A stretch of 64,000 nt of DNA, taken from assembly GCA_003235555.1 (NCBI GenBank), contig QJVY01000092.1, positions 17,257 through 81,256 on the forward strand. Reading direction: 5' to 3'. Origin of the DNA: Ignavibacteria bacterium (GTDB lineage: Bacteria > Bacteroidota > Ignavibacteria > UBA10030 > SZUA-254). Position numbers and translations under genes: made by a program. Position 1 is the first letter of the stretch. Every line of letters begins with the position of its first letter. The notes under the pieces are model-generated. The model was not told where the DNA came from. It searched no databases and worked only from the letters and a program-made list of their open reading frames with translations. Below, piece after piece: positions 3,536 to 26,739 of this stretch.

Positions 3536-4462
3536 TTACTCCCCCGGGTGCGTGCCGGAATGCTCGCTCATGATCACCCCGAGGGCGATGGAGAGGAGTT
3601 TCGCGTCGCTCTTGTCGGAGCGGGAGGGGATGAGCACCGGGATCCTCCCCCCGACGATCACGTGCGCGAGGCGCAGCCCTCCGAAATACGTCGTGCTCTT
3701 CGCCAGGCTGTTCGCCGATTCGATGTTGGCGGCCACGAGGATCTCCGCGCGGCCGGCAATCGGGGATTTGATCCCCTTCTCTTCGGCCGCCTCGACCGAA
3801 ATGGCGTTGTCGAGCGCCAGCGGCCCGTCGACGATGCATCCCCTGATCTGGCCCCGTTCGTTCATTTTGGAGAGCGCCGCCGCGTCGAGCGTGGACTGCA
3901 GGTTCGGCATGACGAACTCCGTCGCCGAGAGGACGGCCACCCTGGGATTGTCGTTCCCGAGCGCGTGCGCGACCTCCACGGCGTTCCGGATCAGTTCCAT
4001 CTTGTTTTTGAGATCGGGCGACATGGTCATGCCGCCGTCGGTGATCATGATGAACTTGTTGTCCGGGCGTTCGGGGAACTCCAGGAGAAAAATGTCCGAC
4101 AGGAGCCTTCCAGTCCGGACCCCGGTCCCCTCTTTCAGCACCGCCTTCATCATCGAGGAGGTGTCGATGCCACCCTTCATCAGGATGTCCGCCCGCCCGG
4201 CGCTCACGAGTTCGAGGGATTTCCCGAGGGCCGGGACCGCGCCTTCGATGTCGAAAATCTCGATGTCGGCCTCCCCCGATGCACCCGGCATGAATTTTTC
4301 TATCACGGCTTTTTCCCCGACCAGGAGGAACGAGGCGATGCCGTGTTCCCGGGCCCTGCGGACCGCCTCGAAGGTTTCCTCGTTGTTCGGGAAGACCACC
4401 AGCACCTTTTTTTTGCCGGACGCCCGCGCCGCGGTGAGCAGCGCCTCGAAATTCATGATCAT
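3536..4462 (-). CDS. ptb: Phosphate butyryltransferase / phosphotransacylase.
   Basis: 308 aa with Pta/Ptb family signatures (VVFPNNEE..., DGPLALDNAIS, ILVAANIESANSLAKS). Its start abuts the buk stop. Confidence 0.85.
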   Translation of the reverse strand: MIMNFEALLTAARASGKKKVLVVFPNNEETFEAVRRAREHGIASFLLVGEKAVIEKFMPGASGEADIEIFDIEGAVPALGKSLELVSAGRADILMKGGIDTSSMMKAVLKEGTGVRTGRLLSDIFLLEFPERPDNKFIMITDGGMTMSPDLKNKMELIRNAVEVAHALGNDNPRVAVLSATEFVMPNLQSTLDAAALSKMNERGQIRGCIVDGPLALDNAISVEAAEEKGIKSPIAGRAEILVAANIESANSLAKSTTYFGGLRLAHVIVGGRIPVLIPSRSDKSDAKLLSIALGVIMSEHSGTHPGE

Positions 4463-5560
4463 CTAATACTCCCTTTCTTGTTCTTCACCGGCCAGGACGC
4501 GCAAAGCGCCACCGGCAAGCGCCTCCATTTCCATCTCGCCGGGGTAGACGAGGACCTTCGCCAGGTACTTCACCCGGTCGGAGACCCAGCGGGTGAGCAT
4601 CTGCGACGACGCGAGACCGCCGGTGAGGATGACCCCGTCGACAAGGCCCCGCAAAACGGTCGCCATCGCCCCGATTTCCTTCGCGATCTGGTACCCCATC
4701 GCCCCGTACACCTCCGCCGCCCGGACGTCCCCCGTCGCAATCCGGGATTCGACCTCGACCGAATCGTTCGTGCCGAGGTAGGCCACCAGGCCCCCCGCGC
4801 CCATCACCATGCCCCGGAGTTCCTTTTCGGTGTACGCTCCCGAGACGCACAGTCCGATGAACTCCTGCAGGGGAAGCCCGCCCGAGCGTTCCGGTGAAAA
4901 CGGCCCGTCGCTCGCGGCGTCGTTGACGTCGATGATCCGCCCCCCGCGGACGGGCGCCACCGAGATCCCTCCCCCCATGTGGGCCACCACGAAAGAGGAA
5001 TGCGTGTGCGGGATCTTCAGGTCACGGGAGGCCGTCCGCGCGACCGCGTGGATATTGAGGACGTGGGCAAGGCTGGAACGGGAGATGAGCGGGTGTCCGG
5101 AGTATCGTGCCGGCGGTTCGAATTCGTCCACCGAAACGGGGTCGACGACGAAGGCGGGACAGTCGTACTCATCGGCGAGGGATCGGGCGATGAGGCACCC
5201 CAGGTTCGAGGCGTGTGCGCCCCTTTCACCGGCCCTGGCGTCGGCGCACATGGCCGCGTTCACCCTGTACGTCCCCCCCCCGACCGGCCTGAAGAGCCCC
5301 CCCGGGGCGACGACCGCGTCGCACGTCCGGGCCCGTTCCCGGAACCACGCGCGGGCTGCGCCGAGCCGAAGCTCCAGCTGGCCGGGGACGCTCCCGCACG
5401 CCGCGAGCTCCTCCGCGGAGTACCGGATCACCTCCCTCTGCGTGAACGCGTGCCTGTCGAATATTCCCAGCTTCGTCGAGGTCGAACCGGGATTCACCAC
5501 CAGCAGACTGAAGTCCCGCCGGAGGGGGTCTTGAGGATCCGCGACGGCGGGATGTTTCAT
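4463..5560 (-). CDS. buk: Butyrate kinase (acetate/butyrate kinase family).
   Basis: N-terminal LVVNPGSTSTKLGIF phosphate-1 motif and HMGGGISVAPV motif. 365 aa. Confidence 0.85.
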   Translation of the reverse strand: MKHPAVADPQDPLRRDFSLLVVNPGSTSTKLGIFDRHAFTQREVIRYSAEELAACGSVPGQLELRLGAARAWFRERARTCDAVVAPGGLFRPVGGGTYRVNAAMCADARAGERGAHASNLGCLIARSLADEYDCPAFVVDPVSVDEFEPPARYSGHPLISRSSLAHVLNIHAVARTASRDLKIPHTHSSFVVAHMGGGISVAPVRGGRIIDVNDAASDGPFSPERSGGLPLQEFIGLCVSGAYTEKELRGMVMGAGGLVAYLGTNDSVEVESRIATGDVRAAEVYGAMGYQIAKEIGAMATVLRGLVDGVILTGGLASSQMLTRWVSDRVKYLAKVLVYPGEMEMEALAGGALRVLAGEEQEREY

Positions 5561-5563
5561 CGG

Positions 5564-5806
5564 TCAGGAGGGGTTGACGAGTTCCCCGTCGCTCTTGATG
5601 CAGTCCATCGGGCAGACCGAGATCGCCTTCAGGATGTCGTCCTCCTCGCGCTGGTCGGCGGGCTGCTCGAGAACGTAATAGTACGACGAATCGCCCGCGT
5701 ACATGAAATTCTGCAGGGCGTACGCGAAACAGAGGCCGCAGCCGTTGCAGTCATCCGTGACGTAGTATTTTCCGGGGGTGTTGTCTTCAAGTTTCTGTGC
5801 TGCCAT
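5564..5806 (-). CDS. Small 4Fe-4S ferredoxin.
   Basis: 80 aa with CNGCGLC....CP cluster-binding motifs. It lies 4 nt upstream of buk. Confidence 0.65.
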   Translation of the reverse strand: MAAQKLEDNTPGKYYVTDDCNGCGLCFAYALQNFMYAGDSSYYYVLEQPADQREEDDILKAISVCPMDCIKSDGELVNPS

Positions 5807-5838: not shown

Positions 5839-6357
5839 TTAATTATCGTGAATACCGGGGTTCTTTCCCCGCGATTTCTGTCTGATGAACGGCGCGAGGA
5901 CGTCACCCTCATGGATGATGTGCCTCCGCAGGACCGTGACGAGTTCCCGAATCGTACGGAGGAGGTCTCCCACCGAGCTGCCGTGGATGCGTCCCCCCTC
6001 GATGTCGCGGATGGTCGAGTGCAGTGTGCCGAGCAGCCCCCGTGTGGTGCGATGTTCTTCGCTGAACGACCTGGCGAGGGCGGGATCGATTTTCCGGAGT
6101 TCGGGGAAGAGGAGGTCCTCCTCCAGTTCTTCATGCCGCCGGAACATCTCGTCCAGTGTCGCGCCGACCGAGGAGATCGTATCGAACGAACGGGCCGTGA
6201 AACCCCGTTCGTGGATTGAACGGGCGGCTTCTTCCAGTTCCCTGATCGTTCCGAGGGTGGCGTCCCGGTCCCGTTCGAGGGCAAGCAGCGATCTGCTCCC
6301 TTTCCCGCCCCGGGGCTTCTCGAGGATGGGGACCGTATTTTTCGGCTGGCGGGGCAT
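5839..6357 (-). CDS. Hemerythrin-like (HHE cation-binding) domain protein.
   Basis: Repeated H...HxxxE spacing (HEELE, HIIHE) in a 172-aa acidic helical protein. Moderate confidence. Confidence 0.5.
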   Translation of the reverse strand: MPRQPKNTVPILEKPRGGKGSRSLLALERDRDATLGTIRELEEAARSIHERGFTARSFDTISSVGATLDEMFRRHEELEEDLLFPELRKIDPALARSFSEEHRTTRGLLGTLHSTIRDIEGGRIHGSSVGDLLRTIRELVTVLRRHIIHEGDVLAPFIRQKSRGKNPGIHDN

Positions 6358-6413
6358 AAGTACCGAAGAGAGTGCAACGGGCGTGCCAGTCCCGTCCGGG
6401 GGGCGAACGAACG

Positions 6414-6449
6414 AAAAAAGCCGTCGTTCGGCTGAACGACGGCTTTTGA
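6414..6449 (-). terminator. Rho-independent terminator of the porin-cytochrome operon; the hairpin is bidirectional.
   Basis: AAAAAAGCCGTCGTTC-ggct-GAACGACGGCTTTT: an 11-bp perfect stem with A-tract and T-tract flanks, about 130 nt after the stop of the cytochrome gene ending at 6577. Confidence 0.6.
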
Positions 6450-6576
6450 GAATCCTGAAACCGGCCTGAATGGTTACTTTTTCAAGTGTGAAAATCCGGG
6501 CGGGAGTGGGCTTTCACTTGTGAGAATCAGCCCCGAATCGCATCACTTCCGGAGGGGATGTGACCGCCGGCCCCGG

Positions 6577-7458
6577 TCAGAAAGGCCGCTCATAGTCAAA
6601 CGCGTTGATCTTGCCATTCATGTGGAGCGACTTGTCCGCAATCTTGCCCTGCGCGTCCACCACGCCGAGGTGGCAGTTACCGCAGGTGGTGAGCAATGCC
6701 GGCATGTGGCCGGCCGGGGGCAGCCCGTGGCAGCTGCCGCACGCCGCTTCCGCCGATCCGCCGGTCCAGACCGGGGTGGCGTTCGATCCGGTGATAAATG
6801 CTGATGTGTAGGCAAATTGCCTCGGAGAGGTCGCGCTGTCGGCCCTCCAGTTCCCGTGGCAGTAGGTGTCCGAACAGGTCAGGGCGGTGTAATCATGCGA
6901 GGGAGAGGGAACGATCCCGGCGCTGGCCGTGCGCGCCCGCGGTCCGTTCAGCGGGACCTCCGCCGGAAGGTCGGAGTCCACGTGGCCGGCCGCGTAGACC
7001 GACGTCGGCACGGTGTGGCACTCGTAACACCAGACGATCGAGGAGAGGTTTCCCCCCTGTACGTGCTTCTGGTGCGCGCCCACACCCGCTGCGGCGGTGG
7101 CGGTGTTGCCGGCGAGGTCCTCCGGCGGCGCGGGTGAGTTGGGTCCGCCGTGGCAGGTGGCGCAATTTTCAGGACCTCCTCCGTCCGTGTGGCACGTGCG
7201 GCAGGACACTTCCGCGACCCCGCCGGAGTAGTCGCTCCCGTGGCAGGTCCGGCACGACCGCATGTCCCACGAATCGGCCATGATGGCTTTCCCGTGGAAA
7301 TTCGCCGAGGAAGGGTTCGTCCAGCCCTCGGCGTGCACCGCGATCGCGGGGTTCGTTCCCGCGGGAAGTTTGTCCTTCAGCTCGGCGCACCCGCCGAACA
7401 TGGCCAGGGAGAGGACGGCCGCACTCAGCACCGGAACCAATGTAAGCTGTTTTTTCAT
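6577..7458 (-). CDS. Multiheme c-type cytochrome lipoprotein (6-7 hemes).
   Basis: Signal peptide with a lipobox-like LAMFGGC. CxxCH motifs CRTCH x2, CATCH, CYECH, CGSCH and CGNCH, plus one CX4CH (CSDTYCH). Confidence 0.85.
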   Translation of the reverse strand: MKKQLTLVPVLSAAVLSLAMFGGCAELKDKLPAGTNPAIAVHAEGWTNPSSANFHGKAIMADSWDMRSCRTCHGSDYSGGVAEVSCRTCHTDGGGPENCATCHGGPNSPAPPEDLAGNTATAAAGVGAHQKHVQGGNLSSIVWCYECHTVPTSVYAAGHVDSDLPAEVPLNGPRARTASAGIVPSPSHDYTALTCSDTYCHGNWRADSATSPRQFAYTSAFITGSNATPVWTGGSAEAACGSCHGLPPAGHMPALLTTCGNCHLGVVDAQGKIADKSLHMNGKINAFDYERPF

Positions 7459-7497
7459 CTGGATCGACTCATGCCCTTGATAATCGCCCTACCCCGC

Positions 7498-8613
7498 TCA
7501 GGGTTTCCGCAGCTCCTCAAGTGAGCTCGCGAGCAGCTCCCGCGCGTACTTGGTGTTATGGATCCCTTCGCTCAGATCGTGTTCGATGAAGAAATAATTG
7601 TACAGCGCTCCCGCCTTCACCGCCGGTGTGATCAGCAGTGGCGATGACGAACTCGCGTTGACGCTGCCGCCGGCGGTGATCCACCCCCGGCTCAGCAGCT
7701 CGTCGTGCAGAGCGTCGAGCGAGTCCTCGATGCCCTGCTGGACGAGGTGCATGTCGTCGGCGGAGAAGGACGAGGGGTGGCACCCGGACTGCAGGCAGCC
7801 GGTCAGGAGGGGAACTTCCCCTCCCCCCTCAACTTCGTAGTGGATGTTCATCGTGTGGCCGCCGGCTTTGCCCGTCCCCTGCGCGGGTGGGTACGACTGT
7901 TCGGCCATGTGGCAGGTGGGGCATCCCTCCTGCATGATGACCGCGTTGGTGGTGTGATTCGAGTTCCCCGTGTACGTGTATCCGGGGAACTGGTATCCGC
8001 CGTTGCCCGAGAGCATCTGGCTCTGGACGCCGTAGTGCGAATACCACCGGCTGCTCGTGATGCGGAGGGTGTCCGTCGCTCCGGGGTTCGAGGGCATCTT
8101 CGGCGACGTCGACCGGGGCATGTGGCACTGGGCGCAGAGGTTGCCCTTCCCGTAGTCGAATGTGGCGTCGGGCACGCCGTCGATATTTGAGAGCAGCGTC
8201 ACCGGTGTCGCCTTGCGGAGCGTGAAATTTCCCCTCGAATGCGGTGAATGGCAGGCGAAGCATCCCGGGGGGCTCGGGACGTACTGGTTGGTGACGGTTT
8301 CCCCGTTCATCCGCTGCACGAAACCCTCCGATGTATGGCACCCGGCGCACGACGACCCGTTGCGCTCGCTGTCTCCGCCGTTGGCGTGTTTCGACTGCGC
8401 CCACTGGTAGGCCCGTCCTGCGATGAAATAGGTGGTATCCACATCGGGGTTATGGCAGCTGGCGCATTGTATGCCCTCGGCGAATCCCTCGAAGGCATCG
8501 GATCCGGCTCCCGGCGGACCCTGCGGCCCCGGGTCGCCCTTGCAGCCCGTCATCAGGAATGACACAATCGCCGTGATCGTCAGCGCGAGTGATAGCGTTC
8601 GCATCCTGTTCAT
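7498..8613 (-). CDS. Multiheme c-type cytochrome lipoprotein (5-6 hemes).
   Basis: Signal peptide with lipobox LMTGC. CASCH, CAGCH, CFACH, CAQCH and CPTCH, plus CX4CH (CLQSGCH). Confidence 0.85.
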   Translation of the reverse strand: MNRMRTLSLALTITAIVSFLMTGCKGDPGPQGPPGAGSDAFEGFAEGIQCASCHNPDVDTTYFIAGRAYQWAQSKHANGGDSERNGSSCAGCHTSEGFVQRMNGETVTNQYVPSPPGCFACHSPHSRGNFTLRKATPVTLLSNIDGVPDATFDYGKGNLCAQCHMPRSTSPKMPSNPGATDTLRITSSRWYSHYGVQSQMLSGNGGYQFPGYTYTGNSNHTTNAVIMQEGCPTCHMAEQSYPPAQGTGKAGGHTMNIHYEVEGGGEVPLLTGCLQSGCHPSSFSADDMHLVQQGIEDSLDALHDELLSRGWITAGGSVNASSSSPLLITPAVKAGALYNYFFIEHDLSEGIHNTKYARELLASSLEELRKP

Positions 8614-8667
8614 CGTACTCTTCTCCTCATGATAAAAATTTTCCGAAATCCTGTCCGCGGCCCGCGC

Positions 8668-9807
8668 CTACCTGCCCGAATGACAGAGTATGCACGTCGG
8701 GTCCTGTCCCTCGACGTCGTGGCACGACACGCACGATTCGATGTCGCGGCGTCCCATCTGCGCGTGCCTCCCGCCTCCCGAACCGGAGGCGATCATGACC
8801 CATCCGGCTTCGAAATGGGACTGCGGTTTGATCTTTCCCTCCGTCAGGATGCCGCCGTTCTGGTGGCAATCGGCGCAGAAGGCCTGACGATCGTGGCAGC
8901 CGGAGCAATCGATCATCCTGTTGCGGGCGTCGACCGGGTGCGTGAACCGGTAGTTCAGGTCGTGCGCCGCCTGGAGGCGGAGTTCGTCGGGCGAGTCCTT
9001 CAGGGACTGCCGGGCTCCGGGGACGGTCATCAGTCCCCTCGTCCCGCCGAAGCCCCTCAACTGGTCCCCGGTATGGCAGTCCTGGCAGAAACTTTCGGTG
9101 TGGCATGTCGAACAGGTGACGTCCATCGAGCCGAGGCGGACGGCCCTGTCGTGTTCCTTCGCGAACCCCGAGACGAGATGATTTTCGGGGATGAGGTTCG
9201 TGAAGTTCGAGTGGCACGTCTCGCAGTTCACCGACACCTGCTTTGCGGAATGGCAATCGACGCACATCGCCATCGCCGGCATGTGCGATTCTGTGCCACC
9301 CGTTCCGGAATGTGTCATTGCGCCCCCGGCGTCCCCGCCCTCACCACCATTCCCGGTGTCGACCGGGGGGAGGCCGCCGTGGCAGGTTTCGCAGGCTATG
9401 CCGCCGGTGGTCGCGTGTTTCTTGTGTGAAAAAATGAGATCCCGGGAGGGAAGGACCATGGGTTCGATCGCGTCGGGGTTCGTGTGGCAGTAGGAGCAGT
9501 CGTTCTCTATCGCCTCCCCGTGGCATGTTTCGCAGCTCTGGTGGTCCGGGATCAGCCTGTCCAGGGAGGATTCACTTTCGGGGGCGGCTGTGTGGCAGTC
9601 GGCGCAGGCGATTTCCCTCTCGACCACGTGGTTCTCATGTGAGAACATGACGCTCTTCCCGGGCTGCTGCTGTCCGGTTCTGTCCTGTGCGGCGGGTGTG
9701 GCGGCCGCGGACGGTTGTTTCATACCGGTGGCGACGAACAATATGGCAAGCGCGGAAACCGTGATGACGGCCGCGGTGTTCATGGTTTTTCTCATCCCGG
9801 GCGTCAT
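8668..9807 (-). CDS. Periplasmic dodecaheme cytochrome c.
   Basis: N-terminal signal peptide and twelve CxxCH motifs in 379 aa (CADCH, CETCH, CSYCH, CETCH, CVDCH, CETCH, CSTCH, CQDCH, CSGCH, CADCH, CVSCH, CILCH). Its start overlaps the upstream porin gene stop by 4 nt. Confidence 0.85.
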   Translation of the reverse strand: MTPGMRKTMNTAAVITVSALAILFVATGMKQPSAAATPAAQDRTGQQQPGKSVMFSHENHVVEREIACADCHTAAPESESSLDRLIPDHQSCETCHGEAIENDCSYCHTNPDAIEPMVLPSRDLIFSHKKHATTGGIACETCHGGLPPVDTGNGGEGGDAGGAMTHSGTGGTESHMPAMAMCVDCHSAKQVSVNCETCHSNFTNLIPENHLVSGFAKEHDRAVRLGSMDVTCSTCHTESFCQDCHTGDQLRGFGGTRGLMTVPGARQSLKDSPDELRLQAAHDLNYRFTHPVDARNRMIDCSGCHDRQAFCADCHQNGGILTEGKIKPQSHFEAGWVMIASGSGGGRHAQMGRRDIESCVSCHDVEGQDPTCILCHSGR

Positions 9808-11093
9808 AGTAATCCGAGCTGGTGGTGGAACCAGTAACTGACCTTCAGGAACCCCCGCAGGTCGCTGTCCATGAACCTGTTGTTCAGCATCTGGACCTGG
9901 ACATCGAAAGAGAAATGGTCGGCGGGCCTGACCACCGCCCCGAGAGATCCGGCGAACATCGTCTCATCCGGCGACCCCGCCTCGAGCCGGTAACTCGAGT
10001 AGGAAATTGCCGCGGTGGGAACGAGTTTTCTCTCGAGGAGGGGATACATCCCCTGGAGGTAGAACGAGCTCAGCTCTCCGGCGTAACCGTTGGACCCGCT
10101 GTAACTGACGGTGAAATACGTCGTGGTCAACCCCGCCGAGAGCCGGCGGCTGAGGTCTCCATCGTACCCCACGTACGCGAACCGCGCGGAGGCCCGGAGG
10201 GTGCGGGTGAACGCGTACTCCACGCCCCCCTCGTATTCCCGGACCGGCGACAGGGGAAACATGGTGAAAAACGAATTGTAGGGAACCGCGGGTTCGCGGT
10301 AGATGAAGTTCGCGAGGAAGGTGAACTGCGCGGTGATCGCGGCCCGGGCGTTGAGTTCGCCCCTGCGGGTCCGCTCGAGGTTCAGGTCGTAGTCGTAGCG
10401 GCCGTAGAACGATGTCCCGCTCCCCGCGTCGTGGGACGCGTCCACCCCGAACAGTTGCGTCGCCCTCGATCCCGGAGAAATCAGCACCATGACCGGGTTG
10501 AAGAGGGAATCCGCCCGGAGGGTTTCGTATTCCTGCCGTTCGATCCTGCGGTTCACGTAGCTCACGCCGAGGCGGGTACCCGGTGCGATTTCTCCCACCG
10601 CCTGCGCCCCGAGCAGAAAATTTTTGTCCAGGTCGCGGTTATGGTCGTAGACAAGGGAGCCCGGCACGTTCGACCCGCCGTATACTGAAAACGACAATTT
10701 GTTTTCGGCCGCCCTGATTTTGACGAAGCCGCCATCCACACCTCCGACACCCACGCCCGCGAAGACCGGCACCCGGCCAAGCCGGAGTTCAAACGTCCGA
10801 TCGCCGTTGCGATACTTCGCGAAGAGGTTCCGGACACGGAGCTCCGCCCCGTCGCCGATCGACTCGGAGAGGGACGCGGTCCCGAAGACCGACGTGGAGA
10901 GCGTGAAGTTCCCCTGGTTGACGTCCACCTGGAAATTCTGCATTCCCAGGAGAACGTTGCCGGAAGCGCCGACGGTGTCGAATTTTTCCCAGCCGTAGAG
11001 CGATGTGGAGAAGCGTCCGTTGATTTCCTGGGCGGCCGCGGGGAGGGCGAGCAGCACGATCCCGGCGACGAACGTCCGGAGTGCGGTGCGCAT
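9804..11093 (-). CDS. Outer-membrane beta-barrel protein, the putative porin of a porin-cytochrome conduit.
   Basis: Signal peptide MRTALRTFVAGIVLLALPAAAQE. Alternating hydrophobic beta-strand pattern throughout, with an aromatic C-terminal region (KVSYWF). No cofactor motifs. Start taken at the in-frame Met (11093); the ORF track extends to 11123. Confidence 0.55.
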   Translation of the reverse strand: MRTALRTFVAGIVLLALPAAAQEINGRFSTSLYGWEKFDTVGASGNVLLGMQNFQVDVNQGNFTLSTSVFGTASLSESIGDGAELRVRNLFAKYRNGDRTFELRLGRVPVFAGVGVGGVDGGFVKIRAAENKLSFSVYGGSNVPGSLVYDHNRDLDKNFLLGAQAVGEIAPGTRLGVSYVNRRIERQEYETLRADSLFNPVMVLISPGSRATQLFGVDASHDAGSGTSFYGRYDYDLNLERTRRGELNARAAITAQFTFLANFIYREPAVPYNSFFTMFPLSPVREYEGGVEYAFTRTLRASARFAYVGYDGDLSRRLSAGLTTTYFTVSYSGSNGYAGELSSFYLQGMYPLLERKLVPTAAISYSSYRLEAGSPDETMFAGSLGAVVRPADHFSFDVQVQMLNNRFMDSDLRGFLKVSYWFHHQLGLL

Positions 11094-11323
11094 GCTGGCC
11101 CCTGTGAGGGGGAATGCAATCATGAGAATGCTTTAGAAGTCCGATCGCCGAATTGGTGGTGTGACACTACCCTTACGATCATCCGAAGTGAATATCCGCA
11201 AAAAAACAAAAAGATACAATGGAAGTATTGAAGATTTTTACACTGTGCCGGGACGGATTATCGAAAATCCGACCACTTCGGTCGGAGAATAAACCTCCGG
11301 CGATATCCTTCCTCCCGGGGGTA

Positions 11324-11377
11324 GAAATAAAAATCGGACGCGCGAGGGGAGGGCCTCTTCCTCCGGAACGCGCGTCC
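11324..11377 (-). terminator. Rho-independent terminator of the first T9SS cytochrome gene.
   Basis: Minus-sense GGACGCGCG-(24 nt)-CGCGCGUCC, a 9-bp perfect GC stem, followed by GAUUUUUAUUUC. Confidence 0.6.
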
Positions 11378-11468
11378 GATCATCCACCAGTGTACAGATT
11401 CAAGACCGACTGCAGAGTATCGGCCTGTACGGGCCCCGGAAACCCGGGGCCCGCCGGTCCGTTTAAGA

Positions 11469-13586
11469 CTATTTCAGCAGGATCATTTTCTTCACGGAAC
11501 TGAACTCCGCGGTCTGCATCCGGTAGATATAGATACCACCGGCAACATCCTTTCCCGACCCGTCCCTGCCGTCCCAGGAGACCTGGTACACGCCCGGAGC
11601 GTAAGTCCCGTCCATGAGCGTTGCGACCCTGGCACCGAGGACGTTGAAGACTTCCACCCTCACTTCGCCGCTCTTCACCATCCCCACCTTAAAGGTTGTC
11701 GTCGGGTTGAAGGGGTTCGGGTAGTTCTGCGTCAGGACGTATTCCGCGGGTAGCGGTTCGTTCCCGGAGAAATCGATCCCGGTCAACTGGTTCACCGTTG
11801 TCTGCAGGAGTCCGATCACGTATTTGGGATTGTGGGCTCCATGGCTGTGGTCCTCCACGACGTAGAGGTAGTTCCAGTAGACCTGTTTGAGGAAGACGGA
11901 ATCCGGCTCCTCACCGATCAGCGCCCGCGTGATATCGGTGCTGCCGAAGGGGGGAAGCTGCATCGCGATCATGTCGAGGAGCCCATCCACCTCGTGCATG
12001 AACGGTTCGAGCGTTCCGTCCTTGTCGTAGTCGACCGCCGCGACGATATCCGAGAACTCGGTGATCCCCGTGTGGCATTCCACGCACTTGGTCACGTTGT
12101 TGTACTCGACGGAATCCGGGCCCTCGTACTCCATGTTCCAGCTGTGACCGCCGATCTGGTCGCGTGCGACGCTGCCGGTGTCGGGCGTCGGAGACATGTG
12201 ACACCCCACGCAGAGATCATCCACGAGCCGGTGGCCGATGCTGATGGGGATCTCCTGGCCGAAGGTATACCCGTTCTGGCCGAGGAAAACATCGGTCGCG
12301 CCGCGATGGTGCGGCCCCCTGAAACTGGACGCCCGCGTGTTGGGGATGTACGATTCGGGTTCGCGACGATATTTATGACAGTTGGTGCAGAGTTTCCCCT
12401 TCCCGAAGAAAGTCTCGCCGGCATAGGAATAGCCGTTCGCGAGGGTGTCGCTCCCCGGGGGTGTGACCCGGAGTTCGGTCGAGTGGGGATTGTGGCAGGT
12501 CTGACAGGTCATTTCGGAACGTGTCAGTTTGCTGTATCCCGACGATATCCTGTTGTCGAAAGGTTCGCCCTTGGTGAAAGCGACGAATCCCCCGCCGTCG
12601 TGGCAGCGGATACAGGCATCCAGCGTGTAGTTTGTGACGAGCGTGTCCGCGTCGGAGTCGTAACTTCCCGACCACGGTGGGTTGGCATGGCCGGAATTCG
12701 ACCACATCGAATAGAAATTGTGCCGCCACGGTTCATCGTGGCATTGTCCGCACATTTCCGCTTTCATGGTCTTCGGCTGGGTGCCGGGACCGGCATGCGC
12801 CGGATTTTTCGGGCCGTGGCATTGCTCGCATCCGATCCCTGAAAGAAGGGTCATCGTTTTTTTGTCGGTTGTGAGCAGGGAATCGTAGAGACCCGGCCTC
12901 CAGGGCATCCACTGCGTGTCCACGAATCCGACCGCCTGTTGGACTTCATCGAATCCGCCGTTATTGGCGCTGAGGTTGAACCCCGTCGTATGGCATTTGA
13001 AACAGGCCTGACCCCAGTACGAGCCGTTGTCGCCGTTCATGCCCTTCTCGAATTTCTTTGCGTGCCCCGATTCCGACCATGCGGCGTACACCTCTGGCTT
13101 CACCGACGAGTGGCACGTCTTGCAGTTGAATGCGCCCCCGCCCACGTCGTGGCGGTCGACGCCGATGAAATTCGCGGCGACGATGTTCACCGACGTGTCA
13201 ACTCCGCCGATCGTCAACCGGACACTGTAGGTACCGGCAGAATCGGTGTGCAATGTCGTCCACTGTGTGGTCGTGGAATCCAAAACGGCTGCGGAACCCG
13301 CCGGTTTCGAGAGGAGCTCCCAGAGGTAATCCGCTCCCGGGGCGTAGTTCTGTCCGTCGGAAACGTCCCACCCCGAGAGGAAGACACGCGTTCCCTTCCC
13401 CACAAGTGGGAGACCGGTGGTCACGTTGTCATGCTCGTTGGGGTTTTCGAAACCCATCTCGCCGAGCCGATGGGGGCTCATCGGTTCGATCTTGATTGCC
13501 GTCGCAGTCGTCTGCGCGGACACCCCGCCGACGGCCAGGAACAGAAAGAGAATGGAAAGGGTGGAAAACAGTATCATTTTAGCCAT
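11469..13586 (-). CDS. Extracellular nine-heme c-type cytochrome with a T9SS (Por) C-terminal sorting domain; paralog 1.
   Basis: Signal peptide. CxxCH motifs CKTCH, CFKCH, CEQCH, CGQCH, CIRCH, CQTCH, CTNCH, CVGCH and CVECH. The C-terminus ...LTQNYPNPFNPTTTFKV...IYIYRMQTAEFSSVKKMILLK is a Por_Secre_tail-type CTD. Confidence 0.85.
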   Translation of the reverse strand: MAKMILFSTLSILFLFLAVGGVSAQTTATAIKIEPMSPHRLGEMGFENPNEHDNVTTGLPLVGKGTRVFLSGWDVSDGQNYAPGADYLWELLSKPAGSAAVLDSTTTQWTTLHTDSAGTYSVRLTIGGVDTSVNIVAANFIGVDRHDVGGGAFNCKTCHSSVKPEVYAAWSESGHAKKFEKGMNGDNGSYWGQACFKCHTTGFNLSANNGGFDEVQQAVGFVDTQWMPWRPGLYDSLLTTDKKTMTLLSGIGCEQCHGPKNPAHAGPGTQPKTMKAEMCGQCHDEPWRHNFYSMWSNSGHANPPWSGSYDSDADTLVTNYTLDACIRCHDGGGFVAFTKGEPFDNRISSGYSKLTRSEMTCQTCHNPHSTELRVTPPGSDTLANGYSYAGETFFGKGKLCTNCHKYRREPESYIPNTRASSFRGPHHRGATDVFLGQNGYTFGQEIPISIGHRLVDDLCVGCHMSPTPDTGSVARDQIGGHSWNMEYEGPDSVEYNNVTKCVECHTGITEFSDIVAAVDYDKDGTLEPFMHEVDGLLDMIAMQLPPFGSTDITRALIGEEPDSVFLKQVYWNYLYVVEDHSHGAHNPKYVIGLLQTTVNQLTGIDFSGNEPLPAEYVLTQNYPNPFNPTTTFKVGMVKSGEVRVEVFNVLGARVATLMDGTYAPGVYQVSWDGRDGSGKDVAGGIYIYRMQTAEFSSVKKMILLK

Positions 13587-13647
13587 TGGTGGTACCTTCT
13601 GATTATGATTCCGATGGATGATAACGTGATGATTTTGACCACACTAC

Positions 13648-13663
13648 CGCAAAAATCATGCCG
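13648..13663 (-). promoter_or_regulatory. Sigma-54 (-24/-12)-type promoter candidate for paralog 1.
   Basis: Minus-sense CGGCATgatttTTGCG, with GG and GC separated by 10 nt, about 62-77 nt upstream of the start at 13586. Confidence 0.4.
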
Positions 13664-13811
13664 TTGAAAATTTCAACACTTTTGGGGAAATTGGCGAGTT
13701 TTTATACTCTGAAAAGGGGGGAATTTCTCAAATCTGAGGAGTTGGGTGTGTTAACCCTCTGATGCACGGATCGGGGCGGAAGGACCCCCTTTCGGGGATA
13801 TCATGGGTGGA

Positions 13812-13862
13812 GACAAAAATCGGACGCGTGAAAGAGGGACTTCTCCTCCGCAACGCGCGTCC
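13812..13862 (-). terminator. Rho-independent terminator of the second T9SS cytochrome gene; a duplicated copy of the 11324-11377 element.
   Basis: Minus-sense GGACGCGCG...CACGCGUCC stem (1 mismatch) followed by GAUUUUUGUC. About 75 nt of flanking sequence is shared with the paralog-1 terminator. Confidence 0.5.
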
Positions 13863-13952
13863 GATCATCCACCAACGTACAAATATCTTATTTGACCGGA
13901 GAGTGCCGGCCCCGAGGGCCCCGCGTTCGCGGGGCCCTCGGCCCGATTACAA

Positions 13953-16052
13953 TCATTTCAGCAGGATCATCTTCTTCACGGAGCTGAATTCCGCGGTCTT
14001 CATCCGGTAGATATAGATGCCGCCCGCCGCATCCTTTCCGGAGACATCCTTGCCGTCCCACGTTACCTGGTAGACGCCGGGAGGATAGGTCCCCTCCATG
14101 AGTGTCGCAACCCGGGCGCCCAGGACGTTGAACACCTCAACCGTGACCTCTCCCCCCTTCGCCATCCCCACTTTCATGGTCGTGGTCGGGTTGAAGGGGT
14201 TCGGGTAGTTCTGCGTCAGGATATACTCCGACGGAACCGGCTCGTGGCCGCTGAAATCCACGCCCGTGAGGTTGCTGAGGGTCACCTGGAGCAAACCGAT
14301 GATATATTTCGGGTTGTGCGCCCCCTTGCTGTTGTCTTCCTTCACGTACGCGTAGTTGTAGTAGACCGCTTTCATCCGCGCGGAATCGGGATCCGCTTCG
14401 ATCAGGGCGAAATCGATGTCCGTGCTTCCGAACGGCGGCAGCCCCAGCTCCACCATTTCGAGGAGGCCTTCGACTTCCATCTGGAAGGGTTCGGTGGTGC
14501 CGTCCATGTCGTAGTCGAAGCCCGCGACGATATCGCTGAACTTGGTGATACCGGTATGGCACTCGACGCACTTGGTGATGTTGTCGTACTCGACTCCACC
14601 TTCGACATACTTCTGCGTCCAGCTGTGGCCGCCGATCTTGTCGCGGGCCACGGTGCCGGTATCCGCCGTCGCCGACATGTGGCAACCGACGCAGAGGTCG
14701 TCCACCAGCCTGTGGCCGATGCTGTTGGTCAGCGTCTGGCCGAAGGTGTAACCATTCTGCCCGAGGATAACGTCGGCCGCGCCCCGGTGGTGCGGACCGA
14801 AGTGGCTGGAGAGGCGCCCGAGGACGTATGTTTCAGCGTCCCTCCGGTATTTATGGCAGTTGACGCAGATCTTGCCCTTGCCGAAGTTGAACGCCGAGTA
14901 GTCGTACCCGTTGCCCAGAGTATCGCTGGCGGCGGGGGCAACTCTCAACGAAGCATCGTGCGGATCATGGCATGTCTGGCAGTTGATCTTCGTGTGCGTC
15001 AGTTCGCCATATCCCGACGAAATCCGGTTGTCGAAGGGTTCGCCCTTCGTGAACGCCACGAAACCCGCGCCGTCGTGACAGCGGATGCAGGTGCTCAGGC
15101 CGTATTCGGTGACCGGGTTGGCGCCGTCGCTGTCGAAACTACCCGACCAGACCGCCTCGGCGTGGACCGAGTTTTCGAATTCGGAGACCTTGTTGTGCCG
15201 CCACGGTTCGTCGTGGCACTGTGCACAGAGAAGGAAGTCCATCGATTTGGGCTGCGTCCCGGCTCCCGCGTGCGCGGGGTTTTTCGGACCGTGGCAGTTT
15301 TCACAGCCGATACCGGCGACCATGCTCAGCTTGGCCTGGGGGGTGGTGAGCAACGAATCATAGAGGCCGGCCCTCCAGGGTGTCCACTCGGTGTCCACGA
15401 ATCCGAGCGCCTGGGCGACGTCGTCGAACCCGCCGTTGTTCGCGAACTCGTTGTAACCGACCGTGTGGCATCCCCAGCAGGACGGACCCCAGTGGTCGCC
15501 CCACACGTTGTTCAATCCGTTCTCCCACATCATCGCGTGCCCGGAACCGCTCCACTTGCTGACGATCTCGGGGGTGGCCCCGTTGTGGCATGTGAGGCAG
15601 TTGAACGCCCCGCCGCCCACGTTGTTCCTGTCGGCTCCGATGTAGTTGGCCGCAATGATATTGATGCTCGTGTCCTTGCCGCCGATCGTCAGTTTCACGG
15701 TGTAGGTTCCGGCCGAATCGGTATGCAGTGAGGTCCATTGCATCGTGGTCGAATCGAGTATCGCCGCCGAGTTCGCCGGCCGCGCGGTCAGCTCCCAGAG
15801 GTAATCTGCCCCCGGCAGGAACTCATCACTACTGACGTCCCAGCCCGAGAGGTACACCCAGGTGCCTTTTCCCACGACGGGCAGGCCCGACGTCGTGTTA
15901 CCGGCGCCGTTGGCGGATTCGAACCCCATCGTCTCGAGACTATGAGGGGTCAGCGCCTCGATCCTGATGGCAGTCCGCTGGGCGAAGAGATCTCCCCCGG
16001 TTGCGACCAGGATACACATCATGATTACCGCAAACAGTATCGATTTTTTCAT
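13953..16052 (-). CDS. Extracellular nine-heme c-type cytochrome with T9SS C-terminal sorting domain; paralog 2.
   Basis: 699 aa, collinear with 11469-13586. Nine CxxCH motifs. The CTD ...LTQNYPNPFNPTTTMKV...KKMILLK is near-identical to that of paralog 1. Confidence 0.85.
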   Translation of the reverse strand: MKKSILFAVIMMCILVATGGDLFAQRTAIRIEALTPHSLETMGFESANGAGNTTSGLPVVGKGTWVYLSGWDVSSDEFLPGADYLWELTARPANSAAILDSTTMQWTSLHTDSAGTYTVKLTIGGKDTSINIIAANYIGADRNNVGGGAFNCLTCHNGATPEIVSKWSGSGHAMMWENGLNNVWGDHWGPSCWGCHTVGYNEFANNGGFDDVAQALGFVDTEWTPWRAGLYDSLLTTPQAKLSMVAGIGCENCHGPKNPAHAGAGTQPKSMDFLLCAQCHDEPWRHNKVSEFENSVHAEAVWSGSFDSDGANPVTEYGLSTCIRCHDGAGFVAFTKGEPFDNRISSGYGELTHTKINCQTCHDPHDASLRVAPAASDTLGNGYDYSAFNFGKGKICVNCHKYRRDAETYVLGRLSSHFGPHHRGAADVILGQNGYTFGQTLTNSIGHRLVDDLCVGCHMSATADTGTVARDKIGGHSWTQKYVEGGVEYDNITKCVECHTGITKFSDIVAGFDYDMDGTTEPFQMEVEGLLEMVELGLPPFGSTDIDFALIEADPDSARMKAVYYNYAYVKEDNSKGAHNPKYIIGLLQVTLSNLTGVDFSGHEPVPSEYILTQNYPNPFNPTTTMKVGMAKGGEVTVEVFNVLGARVATLMEGTYPPGVYQVTWDGKDVSGKDAAGGIYIYRMKTAEFSSVKKMILLK

Positions 16053-16117
16053 ATGAGTGTCCTGTCTAGTTACAGTGAATGGTGAATTTTCGATCGAGTG
16101 TGTTTATCACCAAAAGG

Positions 16118-16132
16118 GCAAGAATTATGCCA
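16118..16132 (-). promoter_or_regulatory. Sigma-54-type promoter candidate for paralog 2.
   Basis: Minus-sense TGGCATaattcTTGC, 66-80 nt upstream of the start at 16052. This is the same spacing as the paralog-1 motif. Confidence 0.45.
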
Positions 16133-16329
16133 CGGTGACGGCCTGTACAAAAAATGTTTGGGGAGCTGAATTACGGTGGAAGGATGCCGGGGAGAAGAAA
16201 GTGATCAATACACCGCCGGATCGGTGTCGAAATTTTCAACAACCTCTGGATGAAGGGAAGTCCCCCACTCTCGGGGGGAATCCTGTTCTCACACCTGAAA
16301 GGGGGTGGGGGTAATGGGTTAAAATCCCC

Positions 16330-16368
16330 AAAAAAAACCCGGTATGGATGCCGAACATCCATACCGGG
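16330..16368 (-). terminator. Rho-independent terminator of the tetraheme cytochrome gene.
   Basis: Minus-sense CCCGGTATGGATG-uucgg-CAUCCAUACCGGG, a 13-bp perfect stem, followed by UUUUUUUUGGGG, starting 26 nt after the stop. Confidence 0.75.
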
Positions 16369-16393
16369 AACAGGTACGAAGGGATCGTCCCCT

Positions 16394-16936
16394 TTATTTC
16401 TTCGGAACCCGGTGCTCGATCTGCGGCCACATCTTGGCGTATTCGAATTTCTTCGCCGTCGGGCTCTTCTCGTTGTGGCATGTGACACAGAGCGCCGTGA
16501 TCGCCTTCTCGTCCTCGTACATCAACAGGCCGGCTTTTTCGGCTTTCTTCGCGTCCTTCATCGTCGCCATGTTCTTGTATCCAGATCCTGCACCGTGGCA
16601 CGATTCACACTGTACACCGTCCTTGACGTCGAATTTCTTGTCGAGCAGTTTGGCATCGGCGGTGATCGTGTGGCATCCCAGACACTCGGGTGTTTCAACG
16701 GCCTTCGTCTTGAATCCCTTCTTGGTGGCGATGGCGTCCGCTTCCTTCGTCAGGAGCACACTGTAGGCCTCGGAGTGTTTGCTCTTCGACCAGATCTCGA
16801 ATTGTTTACCCTGCTTTTCAGTATTGTGGCACATCTTGCACGTCGTCGTGCCCACGTATGTGTTCTGGGCGCTCGTGAGGGATGACAACACGAAGATGAG
16901 GCCGGCCAGGAGGGCGATGATTGTGAATCTGCTCAT
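16394..16936 (-). CDS. Periplasmic tetraheme c-type cytochrome.
   Basis: Signal peptide MSRFTIIALLAGLIFVLSSLTSAQ. CKMCH, CLGCH, CESCH and CVTCH in 180 aa. Confidence 0.8.
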   Translation of the reverse strand: MSRFTIIALLAGLIFVLSSLTSAQNTYVGTTTCKMCHNTEKQGKQFEIWSKSKHSEAYSVLLTKEADAIATKKGFKTKAVETPECLGCHTITADAKLLDKKFDVKDGVQCESCHGAGSGYKNMATMKDAKKAEKAGLLMYEDEKAITALCVTCHNEKSPTAKKFEYAKMWPQIEHRVPKK

Positions 16937-17049: not shown

Positions 17050-17065
17050 TGCATATTTCGTGCCA
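17050..17065 (-). promoter_or_regulatory. Sigma-54 promoter, near consensus, for the tetraheme cytochrome.
   Basis: Minus-sense TGGCACgaaatATGCA (GG-N10-GC), about 115 nt upstream of the ATG at 16936, in an AT-rich intergenic region. Confidence 0.5.
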
Positions 17066-17633: not shown

Positions 17634-17667
17634 CGTAACCGGTTGCGATCTGTGTGCGTACAGGAAG

Positions 17668-17682
17668 GCAAACTTTATGCCA
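17668..17682 (-). promoter_or_regulatory. Sigma-54-type promoter for the stand-alone receiver gene.
   Basis: Minus-sense TGGCATaaagtTTGC, 35-49 nt upstream of the start at 17633. Confidence 0.45.
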
Positions 17683-17804: not shown

Positions 17805-19165
<1,361 letters not shown>

Positions 19166-19166
<1 letters not shown>

Positions 19167-20689
19167 TACGATTTGTCCTTCGCGATCTCCCCGGGATCGA
19201 CGGGGAGGCGTACACGGCAGGTCGTCCCTGCCTGGTCCCCGCTTTCGAGGGAGATGGTACCATGGTGCTGTTCAACGATGCGCCGGGAGATGGTCAGCCC
19301 CAGACCGGTCCCCTGGTGCTTGGTCGTGTAGAACGGCCTGAAAATATTTTCACGTTCGGCCGGGGCGATCCCCTTCCCGGTGTCGCGGACGGTCACCGTC
19401 ACCGACCCGTTCCCGCCCTCGGTCGCGACGCTCACCCGCCCACCGTCGTCGGCGGCCTGCACGGCGTTTAAAATGACGTTCCAGAGGAGCTGCTGGAGGA
19501 GTTTCCTGTCCGCCGTCAGCCGCGGCAGCTCCCTGTCGAGCGACAGGTCGACCGTCACGTTTTTCTTCAACGCCTGCGAGGTCATGATCGAGACCGTCCG
19601 GTCGATGATGCCGTTCAGGTCGGTGAGGTCGAACCTGGGCGGGGAGGGCCTCGCGTAGCTCAGCAGGTCGTTGACCGCGAGGTTCATCCGCTCCATCTGC
19701 ACCATCATCTCCTGGAGTATCGGTTTGTTCGGGTCGACGTCGGCCAGGTCTGAATCGATCACCTGGAGCGCCCCCAGGACCCCCGCCAGCGGGTTTCGGA
19801 TTTCATGCGCCATGCTGGCCGCCATCTCACCGGTGGTCGCCAGCCGGTCGGCGTGCTCCAGCTGTTCATGGTGGAGTTGATGGAGGCGCCCGTGGGCCTC
19901 GTTCAACCGCTCCACCAGTGTGTTGAACGTGGTGATCAGGTCGGAAATTTCATCGTTTCTCGGAGACGGTTCCAGCGTGGAAAAAATCACCGGCTGCCCC
20001 TTTTCGACCCCCGCCAGCTGGTTCTGCAGCGTCCCCATCCGCTGCCGCAGAGTGGAAACGGGCCGGATCACCAGGACGAGCAGCGCCCCGGAAATGACCA
20101 GGCCGATTCCGCCGAACGTCACGATCGTCATCAGGATGTTCATCGTCCGGTGGTTCATGGACGCCTCCTGGATGTGGCCCATGGTGATCTTGACGGCCAT
20201 GTATCCGAGGACAGGTGCGGTGCCCGCGTGACATCCCGAGCAGCTCGGTTTCCTCTCGAGCGGCGTGAGGACGTACTGGAAGGGGGTCCCATCTTCCGTC
20301 CGCGAGAGGAACATCCCCCCGGGGAAACCTTCGCTCTCCCGGTACTCCGAGATCCGGAAGACCCGTCCGGAACTGTCCGGTACCGTGCTCACGCTGATTC
20401 CACCGTCGGGTTTGAGTAAGAACAGTGCCGCGATGTGGCCGGTGGAGTCTATCGTCCGCATGGCCGCCTGGAGGTGACTTTTTTCACCCTGGAGCATCAT
20501 GAATTCCACCACCCCCCTGCCGTACCGTGCGAGCGTGTACGCCTTGTCCCGTCCGTACTCGTTCAACATCTCCGTGCCCGTCCTGTAGGCGAAGTACGCG
20601 AAGCTGCCGCCGGCCACGACCAGGGCCGCCGCGACCGCCGCGATCATCTTCCGCCCGACGGAGTTGAATATTCGGGGGAGCATGGTCAT
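19166..20689 (-). CDS. Sensor histidine kinase with a heme-c (CxxCH) motif in its periplasmic sensor domain.
   Basis: TM1 at about residues 15-35 and TM2 at about 183-208 flank a ~145-aa periplasmic domain containing CSGCH. The cytoplasmic part carries HisKA (HEIRNPL) and HATPase_c. The start overlaps the ccmF stop by 4 nt, and the stop overlaps the NtrC start by 1 nt. Confidence 0.85.
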
Positions 20690-22944: not shown

Positions 22945-23037
22945 GATGTATTCTCGTGATCGGTATTGGAGTGCACGTCTTCATTCGAGGGAAAGCGACA
23001 TCAAAATCCAGAATTTCTTCCCTTTCCGGGCAATAAT

Positions 23038-23052
23038 GCAATCTTTATGCCA
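23038..23052 (-). promoter_or_regulatory. Sigma-54-type promoter for the ccmF-kinase-NtrC operon.
   Basis: Minus-sense TGGCATaaagaTTGC, about 95-108 nt upstream of the ccmF start at 22944. Confidence 0.45.
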
Positions 23053-24564: not shown

Positions 24565-24591
24565 GGTTATCGCTTGATGATGTGCACGGTG

Positions 24592-26244: not shown

Positions 26245-26739
26245 TCACCTCTGGCGACGCTGGAGGCTGTCGGGCGGATAGGTGGATTTCATGTATGCCC
26301 GGGAATCCTGGACCCACGCGTTCAGAAGGTCCTTCTGTTCAATGGTGAGGGATGCGTGGCGGTGGACGAGGAGGTAGGACGGGAGGGGCATTTCGCCGAG
26401 GTCGATCTGCTCGGTGATTTCTTCGAGCTTATGGTATTGCCGTCGGAGGCTCGAGACGGCGAAATCTGAAAAGTTCAGGTGTTGTTTGGCCTCCCTGATA
26501 TGGTCGTCGAGCCACCAGCCGACCGGCTGGACCTCGAAATACCACGGGTACCGGGTCTCCTCACTGTGGCAGTCATAGCAGGACTCCCGGAGGATCGCCG
26601 CGACGGTGTCGGGAACAGGAAGAGCAGTGGAGATATCCTTCGAGAGGTCGGGCGCGGCCGTGTTCTTCTCCGGCCGGATGAACTGGACGATCACGAACAC
26701 GACGAAGAGGAGTATGAGAACGGTTTTGATGATTTTCAT
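26245..26739 (-). CDS. Single-heme 'haem-binding domain' protein (CxxCH), membrane-anchored.
   Basis: N-terminal TM/signal anchor. SCYDCHSEETRYPWYF resembles the Haem_bd domain family. Confidence 0.5.
   Translation of the reverse strand: MKIIKTVLILLFVVFVIVQFIRPEKNTAAPDLSKDISTALPVPDTVAAILRESCYDCHSEETRYPWYFEVQPVGWWLDDHIREAKQHLNFSDFAVSSLRRQYHKLEEITEQIDLGEMPLPSYLLVHRHASLTIEQKDLLNAWVQDSRAYMKSTYPPDSLQRRQR

Follow-up and report, generated by a model that had tools for sequence, protein, structure and literature searches.

A porin-multiheme cytochrome operon with adjacent type IX-sorted cytochrome genes in an Ignavibacteria genome

The four-gene operon, its products and its relatives

A stretch of 64,000 nt from an Ignavibacteria bacterium (GenBank assembly GCA_003235555.1, contig QJVY01000092.1, positions 17,257 to 81,256 of the forward strand; hereafter the window) was analysed, in which an original prediction, made from the sequence alone, had described four co-directional genes for a porin and three multiheme cytochromes, resembling a conduit for extracellular electron transfer (EET). 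The window comes from a JGI metagenome contig (source sample JGI 3300027985). The four genes were located on the minus strand, with the same coordinates in the list of open reading frames (ORFs), and are followed by an intrinsic terminator:

9804-11093, minus: barrel gene, 429 aa, 0 CxxCH motifs
8668-9807, minus: dodecaheme cytochrome gene, 379 aa, 12 CxxCH motifs
7498-8613, minus: lipoprotein cytochrome A gene, 371 aa, 5 CxxCH motifs and 1 CX4CH motif
6577-7458, minus: lipoprotein cytochrome B gene, 293 aa, 6 CxxCH motifs and 1 CX4CH motif
about 6411-6447, minus: intrinsic terminator at the operon end, 14-bp perfect stem and U6 tail

The four genes form a real operon, whose products are a 12-heme cytochrome of the periplasm, a large barrel of the outer membrane and two heme proteins with a lipid anchor. 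A total of 23 CxxCH motifs was counted (0, 12, 5 and 6 per gene), in agreement with the minimum of 23 previously claimed, to which two CX4CH sites are added, one per lipoprotein (CLQSGCH and CSDTYCH). When all six-frame ORFs of 80 aa or more were searched across the window, 47 CxxCH motifs turned up, and 45 of these sit in seven adjacent genes (6577-16936); a chance origin of the heme motifs is excluded by this concentration. The barrel gene has an alternative ATG at 11123, which would add 10 residues that are absent from the homologues. Moreover, the predicted 4-nt overlap between the barrel stop and the 12-heme start was recovered from the ORF coordinates, while the remaining intergenic gaps measure 54 and 39 nt, and no terminator-like site was placed in them by the terminator scan. 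The same scan listed the hairpin at 6411-6447 (centroid of -22.4 kcal/mol, z = -3.6), and none of 200 shuffled sequences folded equally well, so that the claim of a strong terminator also held. According to the three-element operational definition of an outer-membrane conduit used for Geobacter (PMC6148476), an integral barrel, a periplasmic multiheme cytochrome and an outer-membrane lipoprotein cytochrome are to be encoded contiguously; the overlap, the two short gaps and the single terminator give such contiguity here.

The barrel protein has a Sec signal peptide, its predicted mature N-terminus being the invariant Gln22. An N-terminal pyroglutamate is a habit of Bacteroidota, which is matched by Gln22 and by signal peptide cleavage at A↓Q in three cytochromes encoded nearby. 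No family match of the barrel was found in Pfam, NCBIfam or PDB sequences, and a handful of its relatives showed weak matches to Porin_4, LptD or OMP_b-brl. Membership of the MtrB/PioB family was considered and rejected, as the Pfam model MtrB_PioB was not matched. The AlphaFold2 model, built on 38 homologues, was confident (mean predicted local distance difference test score, pLDDT, of 87.8) and shows 24 beta-strand elements after a signal helix; as a pair of these elements is just 5 residues long, the count is 22-24 strands. It has no plug domain, its longest loop does not exceed 17 residues, and its closest structural matches were 22- and 24-strand barrels, MtrB being matched too. The modelled protein is thus a plug-less barrel of about 22-24 strands, presumably large enough to hold a cytochrome, and not the small 8-12-strand outer-membrane protein that had been named as the outcome that would speak against a conduit. 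More than 240 homologues were found in a word-indexed database, every named one being a 'hypothetical protein' from metagenome-assembled genomes (MAGs) of Ignavibacteria or Bacteroidota, and an exhaustive profile search gave 578 clusters at 50% identity. Cluster look-ups and a profile of the barrels of the 14-heme clade gave no cultured named homologue, only MAG entries called 'hypothetical protein' or 'cytochrome c3 family'.

The dodecaheme cytochrome presents a cleavable signal peptide with a conserved small-x-small (AxA-type) cleavage site, no lipobox and no Cys at that position, and it provides the periplasmic multiheme c-type cytochrome of the conduit definition. All 12 CxxCH motifs were invariant across 42 homologues, in which 12 further His residues were conserved, 11 of them invariantly and His305 in at least 90%, and bis-His ligation is therefore possible at every heme. 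The sole family-level signal was that of a c7-type triheme module (Pfam Cytochrome_C7, PF14522, 54.6 bits), accompanied across the family by sub-threshold matches to QrcA, DsrJ and nanowire_3heme. Compared to its 14-heme relatives, the 12-heme form is the same protein minus a C-terminal di-heme extension of ~50 aa. An assignment to the MtrA/DmsE-family decahemes was discarded (TIGR03508, 17.9 bits vs. a cut-off of 192.2; 12 hemes).

The two remaining products were predicted to be lipoproteins, as claimed, with the lipoboxes LMTG↓C (A) and MFGG↓C (B), whose Cys is kept in the homologues of both; they would be the outer-membrane lipoprotein cytochromes of the definition, with 5+1 and 6+1 heme motifs, respectively. 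In lipoprotein A, the lipidated Cys is followed straight away by a collagen-like Gly-x-x tether, CKGDPGPQGPPG, kept in the homologues with the consensus C[KE]G[DEP]xGPxGxxG, while the homologues of lipoprotein B strongly conserve C[AST][ED]LK[DN]xLPxP at the same place (both among the related loci L004-L050, described below). These sequences may act as a tether in the former and as a surface-export or docking signal in the latter. The original prediction had seen no obvious MtrA/MtrB/OmcB-type motif patterns in these proteins, which was mistaken. Lipoprotein B passes the Geobacter CxxxxCH/CxxCH model TIGR01904 (42.9 bits vs. a cut-off of 27) as well as PF09698 (27.7 vs. 21.7 bits), which makes it an outer cytochrome with the Geobacter CxxxxCH...CxxCH domain, and within the family it would be the core cytochrome at the cell surface, similar to OmcB. 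Lipoprotein A barely reaches the MtrC/MtrF domain II/IV model PF22113 (30.4 bits vs. a cut-off of 30).

Nrf, Hao or Otr identities, whose confident assignment had been held out as evidence against a conduit, were rejected for the cytochromes, as the NCBIfam scores remained far under the cut-offs. In particular, lipoprotein A scored 14.6 bits for PF02335 (cut-off of 24.1), the top PDB matches were to octaheme nitrite reductase with E = 0.016 over ~45 residues, and no CxxCK catalytic heme motif was found in the cytochromes of the locus.

One genome per species was scanned with two exact peptide patterns, which returned 47 related loci, all of them from MAGs labelled Ignavibacteria, Bacteroidota or Chlorobi-group; Ignavibacterium album and Melioribacter roseus were not among these loci, possibly owing to the use of two exact patterns. 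The frequencies of the genes near the barrel were the following:

dodecaheme homologue (12 or 14 hemes) directly after the barrel: 47/47 loci
lipoprotein B homologue following: 41/47 loci
c554-like tetraheme cytochrome near the barrel: 23/47 loci
lipoprotein A near the barrel: about 20/47 loci
T9SS-sorted (type IX secretion system) cytochromes near the barrel: 10/47 loci

At the junction between barrel and dodecaheme genes, all loci showed either an overlap of 1-4 nt or a short gap, and the invariant core of the family, as read from these genes, is the barrel, the presumed 12/14-heme wire and the OmcB-like lipoprotein. Furthermore, 20 of the 47 loci (L009, L015, L020-L022, L026-L028, L030, L031, L033, L034, L038, L039, L041, L045 and L047-L050) had within 8 kb of the barrel an ImcH-like cytochrome of ~497 aa, with 6 CxxCH motifs, 1 atypical motif and an NrfH/NapC-like domain (of the NapC/NirT quinol dehydrogenase type), following the published architecture of ImcH (PMC4251993). 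At least seven loci harboured a 13-heme protein, fused in L027 to a b-type cytochrome domain (CbcL-like). Neither the ImcH-like nor the 13-heme CbcL-like protein was present in the window.

Neighbouring cytochromes, regulators and other genes

Three more cytochrome genes, missed by the original prediction, lie immediately upstream of the barrel operon on the same strand (cut-offs of 23 bits for TIGR04183 and 30 bits for PF22113):

11469-13586, minus: nonaheme T9SS-sorted cytochrome, paralogue 1, 9 CxxCH motifs; TIGR04183 32.2 bits, PF22113 37.5 bits
13953-16052, minus: nonaheme T9SS-sorted cytochrome, paralogue 2; TIGR04183 36.7 bits, PF22113 43.5 bits
16394-16936, minus: small periplasmic c554-like tetraheme cytochrome; PF13435 63 bits

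The two nonaheme paralogues are 68% identical. Each of them combines MtrC/MtrF-type heme domains with an N-terminal domain of ~130 aa, a Sec signal peptide that ends in A↓Q and a C-terminal sorting domain of T9SS type A, so that both have the two signals of type A cargo. Homology links their hexaheme core to lipoprotein A, which aligns with residues 252-601 of the T9SS-sorted cytochrome (25% identity, E = 3e-19). In this alignment the CX4CH of lipoprotein A faces a canonical CxxCH, and its role as a true heme site is thereby supported. The tetraheme cytochrome is a candidate periplasmic shuttle.

Regarding their transcription, paralogue 1 has its own sigma-54-like promoter (~13648-13663) and a terminator at ~11323-11381 (-38.9 kcal/mol, z = -5.3), paralogue 2 has a sigma-54-like promoter at 16117-16132 and a terminator at ~13812-13866, and the tetraheme gene has a sigma-54-like promoter at 17050-17065 and a terminator at 16338-16368. 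Both T9SS cytochrome genes and the tetraheme gene are thus predicted to be separate transcription units, each with its own strong terminator and sigma-54-type element. In the relatives, the T9SS-sorted cytochromes were directly upstream of the barrel and on the same strand in 8 of the 10 loci having them, and just downstream of the cluster in the other two.

Further features on the minus strand of the same region were:

17805-22944, minus: probable regulatory/maturation operon of three overlapping genes, with a sigma-54-like promoter at 23037-23052
20686-22944, minus: CcmF-like maturation protein, 752 aa, Cytochrom_C_asm and CcmF_C domains, first gene of that operon
19166-20689, minus: sensor histidine kinase with a periplasmic CxxCH
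17805-19166, minus: sigma-54 activator response regulator, from Pfam matches
17667-17682, minus: sigma-54-type site upstream of a single-domain response regulator
6373-6388, minus: sigma-54-type site with perfect consensus, TGGCACGCCCGTTGCA, upstream of the hemerythrin gene
5839-6357, minus: hemerythrin-domain protein, immediately downstream of the conduit operon

A total of six sigma-54-type -24/-12 elements (TGGCA[CT]-N5-TTGC-like) were located, all on the minus strand and correctly oriented upstream of six units, and they account for six of the 12 highest-scoring sites across the window. The kinase gene shares 4 nt with the CcmF-like gene and 1 nt with the sigma-54 activator gene. The periplasmic domain of the kinase (residues ~33-181, between two predicted transmembrane helices) contains CSGCH at position 150, which suggests a heme-c redox sensor. 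The CcmF-like protein could be a heme lyase dedicated to the atypical CX4CH sites, for which NrfE offers an analogy. After this operon, a second pair of PAS histidine kinase and sigma-54 activator was found at 23203-26094, adjoined by the gene of a 164-aa membrane-anchored protein with a single CxxCH (CYDCH; 26245-26739, minus).

The novelty that the original prediction implied for a T9SS-bearing, non-proteobacterial setting did not stand, since Pcc clusters had already been published from such organisms. Two further, unrelated cargo proteins with a Por_Secre_tail were found in the window, namely a sortilin/BNR-repeat protein (31127-34225, minus) and an S15 X-Pro dipeptidyl peptidase (34349-36271, minus), which indicates that the organism uses T9SS; no T9SS machinery gene appeared among the window ORFs scanned. 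Secreted peptidases (M3, M61 and S41) were abundant in the downstream region. On the other side of the cluster, the hemerythrin gene is followed by genes for a small ferredoxin (5564-5806), an acetate/butyrate-type kinase (4463-5560) and a phosphotransacylase (3536-4462).

Proposed function and alternative explanations

The four genes probably constitute a Pcc/Ext-type trans-outer-membrane electron conduit of this Ignavibacteria/Bacteroidota bacterium, because the three conduit elements are genetically coupled, their synteny is conserved and the cytochromes fit none of the Nrf, Hao or Otr families. The Pcc-like architecture originally proposed, made of a barrel, a periplasmic cytochrome and lipoprotein cytochromes, was therefore upheld. 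In the proposed mechanism, the plug-less barrel of about 22-24 strands would sit in the outer membrane, and the secreted 12-heme cytochrome, translationally coupled to it, would thread its lumen and form an insulated wire of hemes that connects periplasm and cell surface. Outside, electrons would be passed to one or two lipid-anchored multiheme cytochromes, lipoprotein B being the conserved OmcB-like partner and lipoprotein A an accessory, Gly-Pro-tethered hexaheme module. The likeliest direction would be outward: electrons would leave the quinol pool, travel over periplasmic cytochromes, for which the neighbouring c554-like tetraheme cytochrome is a candidate, and end on extracellular acceptors that may be insoluble or of high molecular weight (for instance Fe(III)/Mn(IV) oxides, humics, electrodes or partner cells). 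At the level of the family, the relatives pair the barrel cluster with ImcH-like and CbcL-like proteins, which together would complete the route between quinol pool and cell surface.

Several observations weigh against this interpretation. No promoter of the barrel operon was identified, the sigma-70 scan giving nothing above chance, and the window scan placed no sigma-54 site upstream of it, unlike the neighbouring genes. The AlphaFold2 model of the dodecaheme cytochrome was poor (pLDDT of 61, with the C-terminal half below 50), for which reason its rod shape and its fit into the barrel are hypothetical, and Foldseek returned for this model just weak matches to ActA of alternative complex III, with no MtrA-like rod. 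Moreover, no inner-membrane quinol dehydrogenase cytochrome is encoded within the 64-kb window. Finally, the barrel family is so far known from genes and predicted structure alone, and its link to Geobacter OmbB/ExtB and to IALB_1839 of I. album is drawn by description.

In this lineage, the two upstream nonaheme cytochromes probably supply an additional outer layer of hemes, at the surface or in secreted form. As a broader and tentative proposal, which we hold at somewhat less than even odds, T9SS may export heme-loaded cytochromes in one Ignavibacteria/Bacteroidota clade as the outermost layer of EET, with one hexaheme module deployed in two ways, either lipidated (lipoprotein A) or as a T9SS-sorted nonaheme protein that is surface-anchored or released. 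The role of T9SS would then be that of type II secretion for MtrC/OmcA in Shewanella, and a sigma-54 regulon would control the set, its sensor kinase reading the periplasmic redox state via its own c-type heme. No paper linking T9SS with multiheme or c-type cytochromes or with EET was found in the full-text literature searched, which leaves out most subscription journals. If functional, these cytochromes would show a new way in which cytochromes reach the cell exterior, and would connect T9SS with respiration in a testable manner. On the other hand, they may be functionally unrelated neighbours, for example secreted redox enzymes, beside a conduit that uses the two lipoproteins only. Their own promoter-like sites and terminators and their appearance in just 10 of the 47 related loci agree with this explanation, which we nevertheless regard as rather unlikely, given the homology of their hexaheme core to lipoprotein A, their position directly upstream of the barrel in 8 of those 10 loci (just downstream of the cluster in 2), and the sigma-54-type promoters that they have in common with the tetraheme gene and the ccmF-like/kinase/activator operon.

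The same conduit architecture could also run inward, for electron uptake or Fe(II) oxidation as in MtoAB/PioAB, or for uptake from a cathode or between species. Porin-cytochrome systems have been described as bidirectional (PMC8258643), the direction is not fixed by sequence, and the window is devoid of the quinol dehydrogenase that would point to the reductive direction. However, 'mto-like' systems are by description those without extracellular cytochromes (PMC6137239), while the window has two lipoprotein and two T9SS-sorted ones; the clusters of the relatives are tied to ImcH-like and CbcL-like proteins, known from Geobacter Fe(III)/electrode reduction; and the neighbouring genes are fermentative or heterotrophic (acetate/butyrate-type kinase, phosphotransacylase and peptidases). 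Because of the surface cytochromes and of the ImcH-like and CbcL-like neighbours in the relatives, an inward direction appears improbable compared to the outward conduit.

It is very improbable that there is no conduit, with the barrel serving for ordinary diffusion or export and the cytochromes forming a soluble-substrate reductase or electron-storage chain, either periplasmic or associated with a membrane. The lack of a family annotation for the barrel, the weak Porin_4, LptD or OMP_b-brl matches of a few relatives and the weak likeness of the cytochromes to QrcA/ActA c7 modules and to fragments of NrfA/octaheme reductases (E = 0.016-0.3) would suit it, but the barrel adjoins a 12/14-heme cytochrome in all 47 loci with the genes overlapping or nearly abutting, there is no CxxCK or other catalytic-heme signature and the reductase-family scores are far under the curated cut-offs, two of the partners are lipoproteins, and a barrel whose model has 24 strand elements, lacks a plug and shows no loop above 17 aa would be an open hole unless filled.

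Comparison with known systems

Sediments, aquifers, peat and electrode biofilms harbour large populations of Ignavibacteria and related Bacteroidota, which are suspected, unproven iron and electrode respirers. Pcc clusters have been published for I. album, M. roseus and Ignavibacteria/Bacteroidetes MAGs (PMC4245776, PMC7399161, PMC6137239, PMC8258643), including bioanode and hot-spring MAGs of Ignavibacteria (PMC7399161, PMC6137239), while a multi-omics paper on M. roseus (PMC5492636) reports nothing on multiheme or outer-membrane proteins. Clusters of the pcc type are thus already known from these phyla, and the window adds another, as a clean and complete example of the Ignavibacteria/Bacteroidota conduit. 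What is new or under-described here is the delimited barrel family with its invariant three-gene core, together with the conserved post-lipidation motifs and, most notably, the T9SS-sorted nonaheme cytochromes, which have a heme module in common with lipoprotein A, along with the predicted sigma-54 regulon containing the putative heme-c sensor kinase and the CcmF paralogue. A profile of the barrel family would sharpen the genome-based prediction of EET outside Proteobacteria and Desulfobacterota.

In the Geobacter Pcc systems (OmbB-OmaB-OmcB/OmbC-OmaC-OmcC), the gene order is the same as in the window, with porin, periplasmic multiheme cytochrome and lipoprotein cytochrome, the lipoprotein has in both the CxxxxCH/CxxCH domain (TIGR01904), and the barrel is likewise smaller than MtrB, the Pcc porins being predicted with 18-22 strands (PMC4245776). 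However, OmaB has 8 hemes instead of 12, a single 12-heme OmcB takes the place of the two small lipoproteins (5+1 and 6+1 motifs), and the host of the window belongs to Bacteroidota/Ignavibacteria, the barrels being compared by description. The parts list of ExtABCD (GSU2645-2642), which is necessary and sufficient for electrode growth of Geobacter, is also common to both, with a dodecaheme cytochrome, a barrel and a pair of lipoprotein cytochromes that includes a pentaheme (PMC6148476). Nevertheless, the cytochrome gene comes first in ext, ExtD has 12 hemes vs. 6+1 motifs, and ExtB is predicted with 18 strands vs. about 22-24 in the window barrel, a comparison again made by description. Regarding Shewanella MtrCAB (PDB 6R2Q), MtrB has 26 strands vs. 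about 22-24, there are 10 hemes vs. 12 and the gene order is different; judged from the profile searches, the window cluster is not a member of the Mtr family, since MtrB_PioB was not matched and the DmsE/MtrA model gave 17.9 bits vs. 192.

Counterparts were also found among the published clusters of the same phyla. A seven-gene 'uncharacterized EET cluster' of the anode-enriched MAG Bacteroidetes_1, with one beta-barrel and six multiheme cytochromes, had matches only to hypothetical proteins of Bacteroidetes/Ignavibacteriae (PMC8258643), and its gene count, compared by description, is the same as that of the window barrel plus six cytochromes (6577-16052 and 16394-16936). Shi et al. 2014 (PMC4245776), whose BLAST threshold was E < 0.01, described in I. 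album the pcc cluster IALB_1837-1840, called distant from all other Pcc groups, with the porin IALB_1839, the 400-aa 14-heme periplasmic cytochrome IALB_1838, the outer cytochrome IALB_1837, carrying an atypical CXnCH motif, and an upstream periplasmic cytochrome. Its layout and sizes are matched by the related loci L026, L030 and L033, with barrels of 426-429 aa and 14-heme cytochromes of 400-401 aa; L026 and L033 add a 410-aa lipoprotein with 9+2 hemes, whose counterpart in L030 is cut at the contig end. As these three loci reproduce the layout and sizes of the I. album cluster, the window cluster very likely belongs to the same family, judging from the published description of the former, from which it differs in having the 12-heme form, a second lipoprotein (A) and the T9SS-sorted cytochromes.

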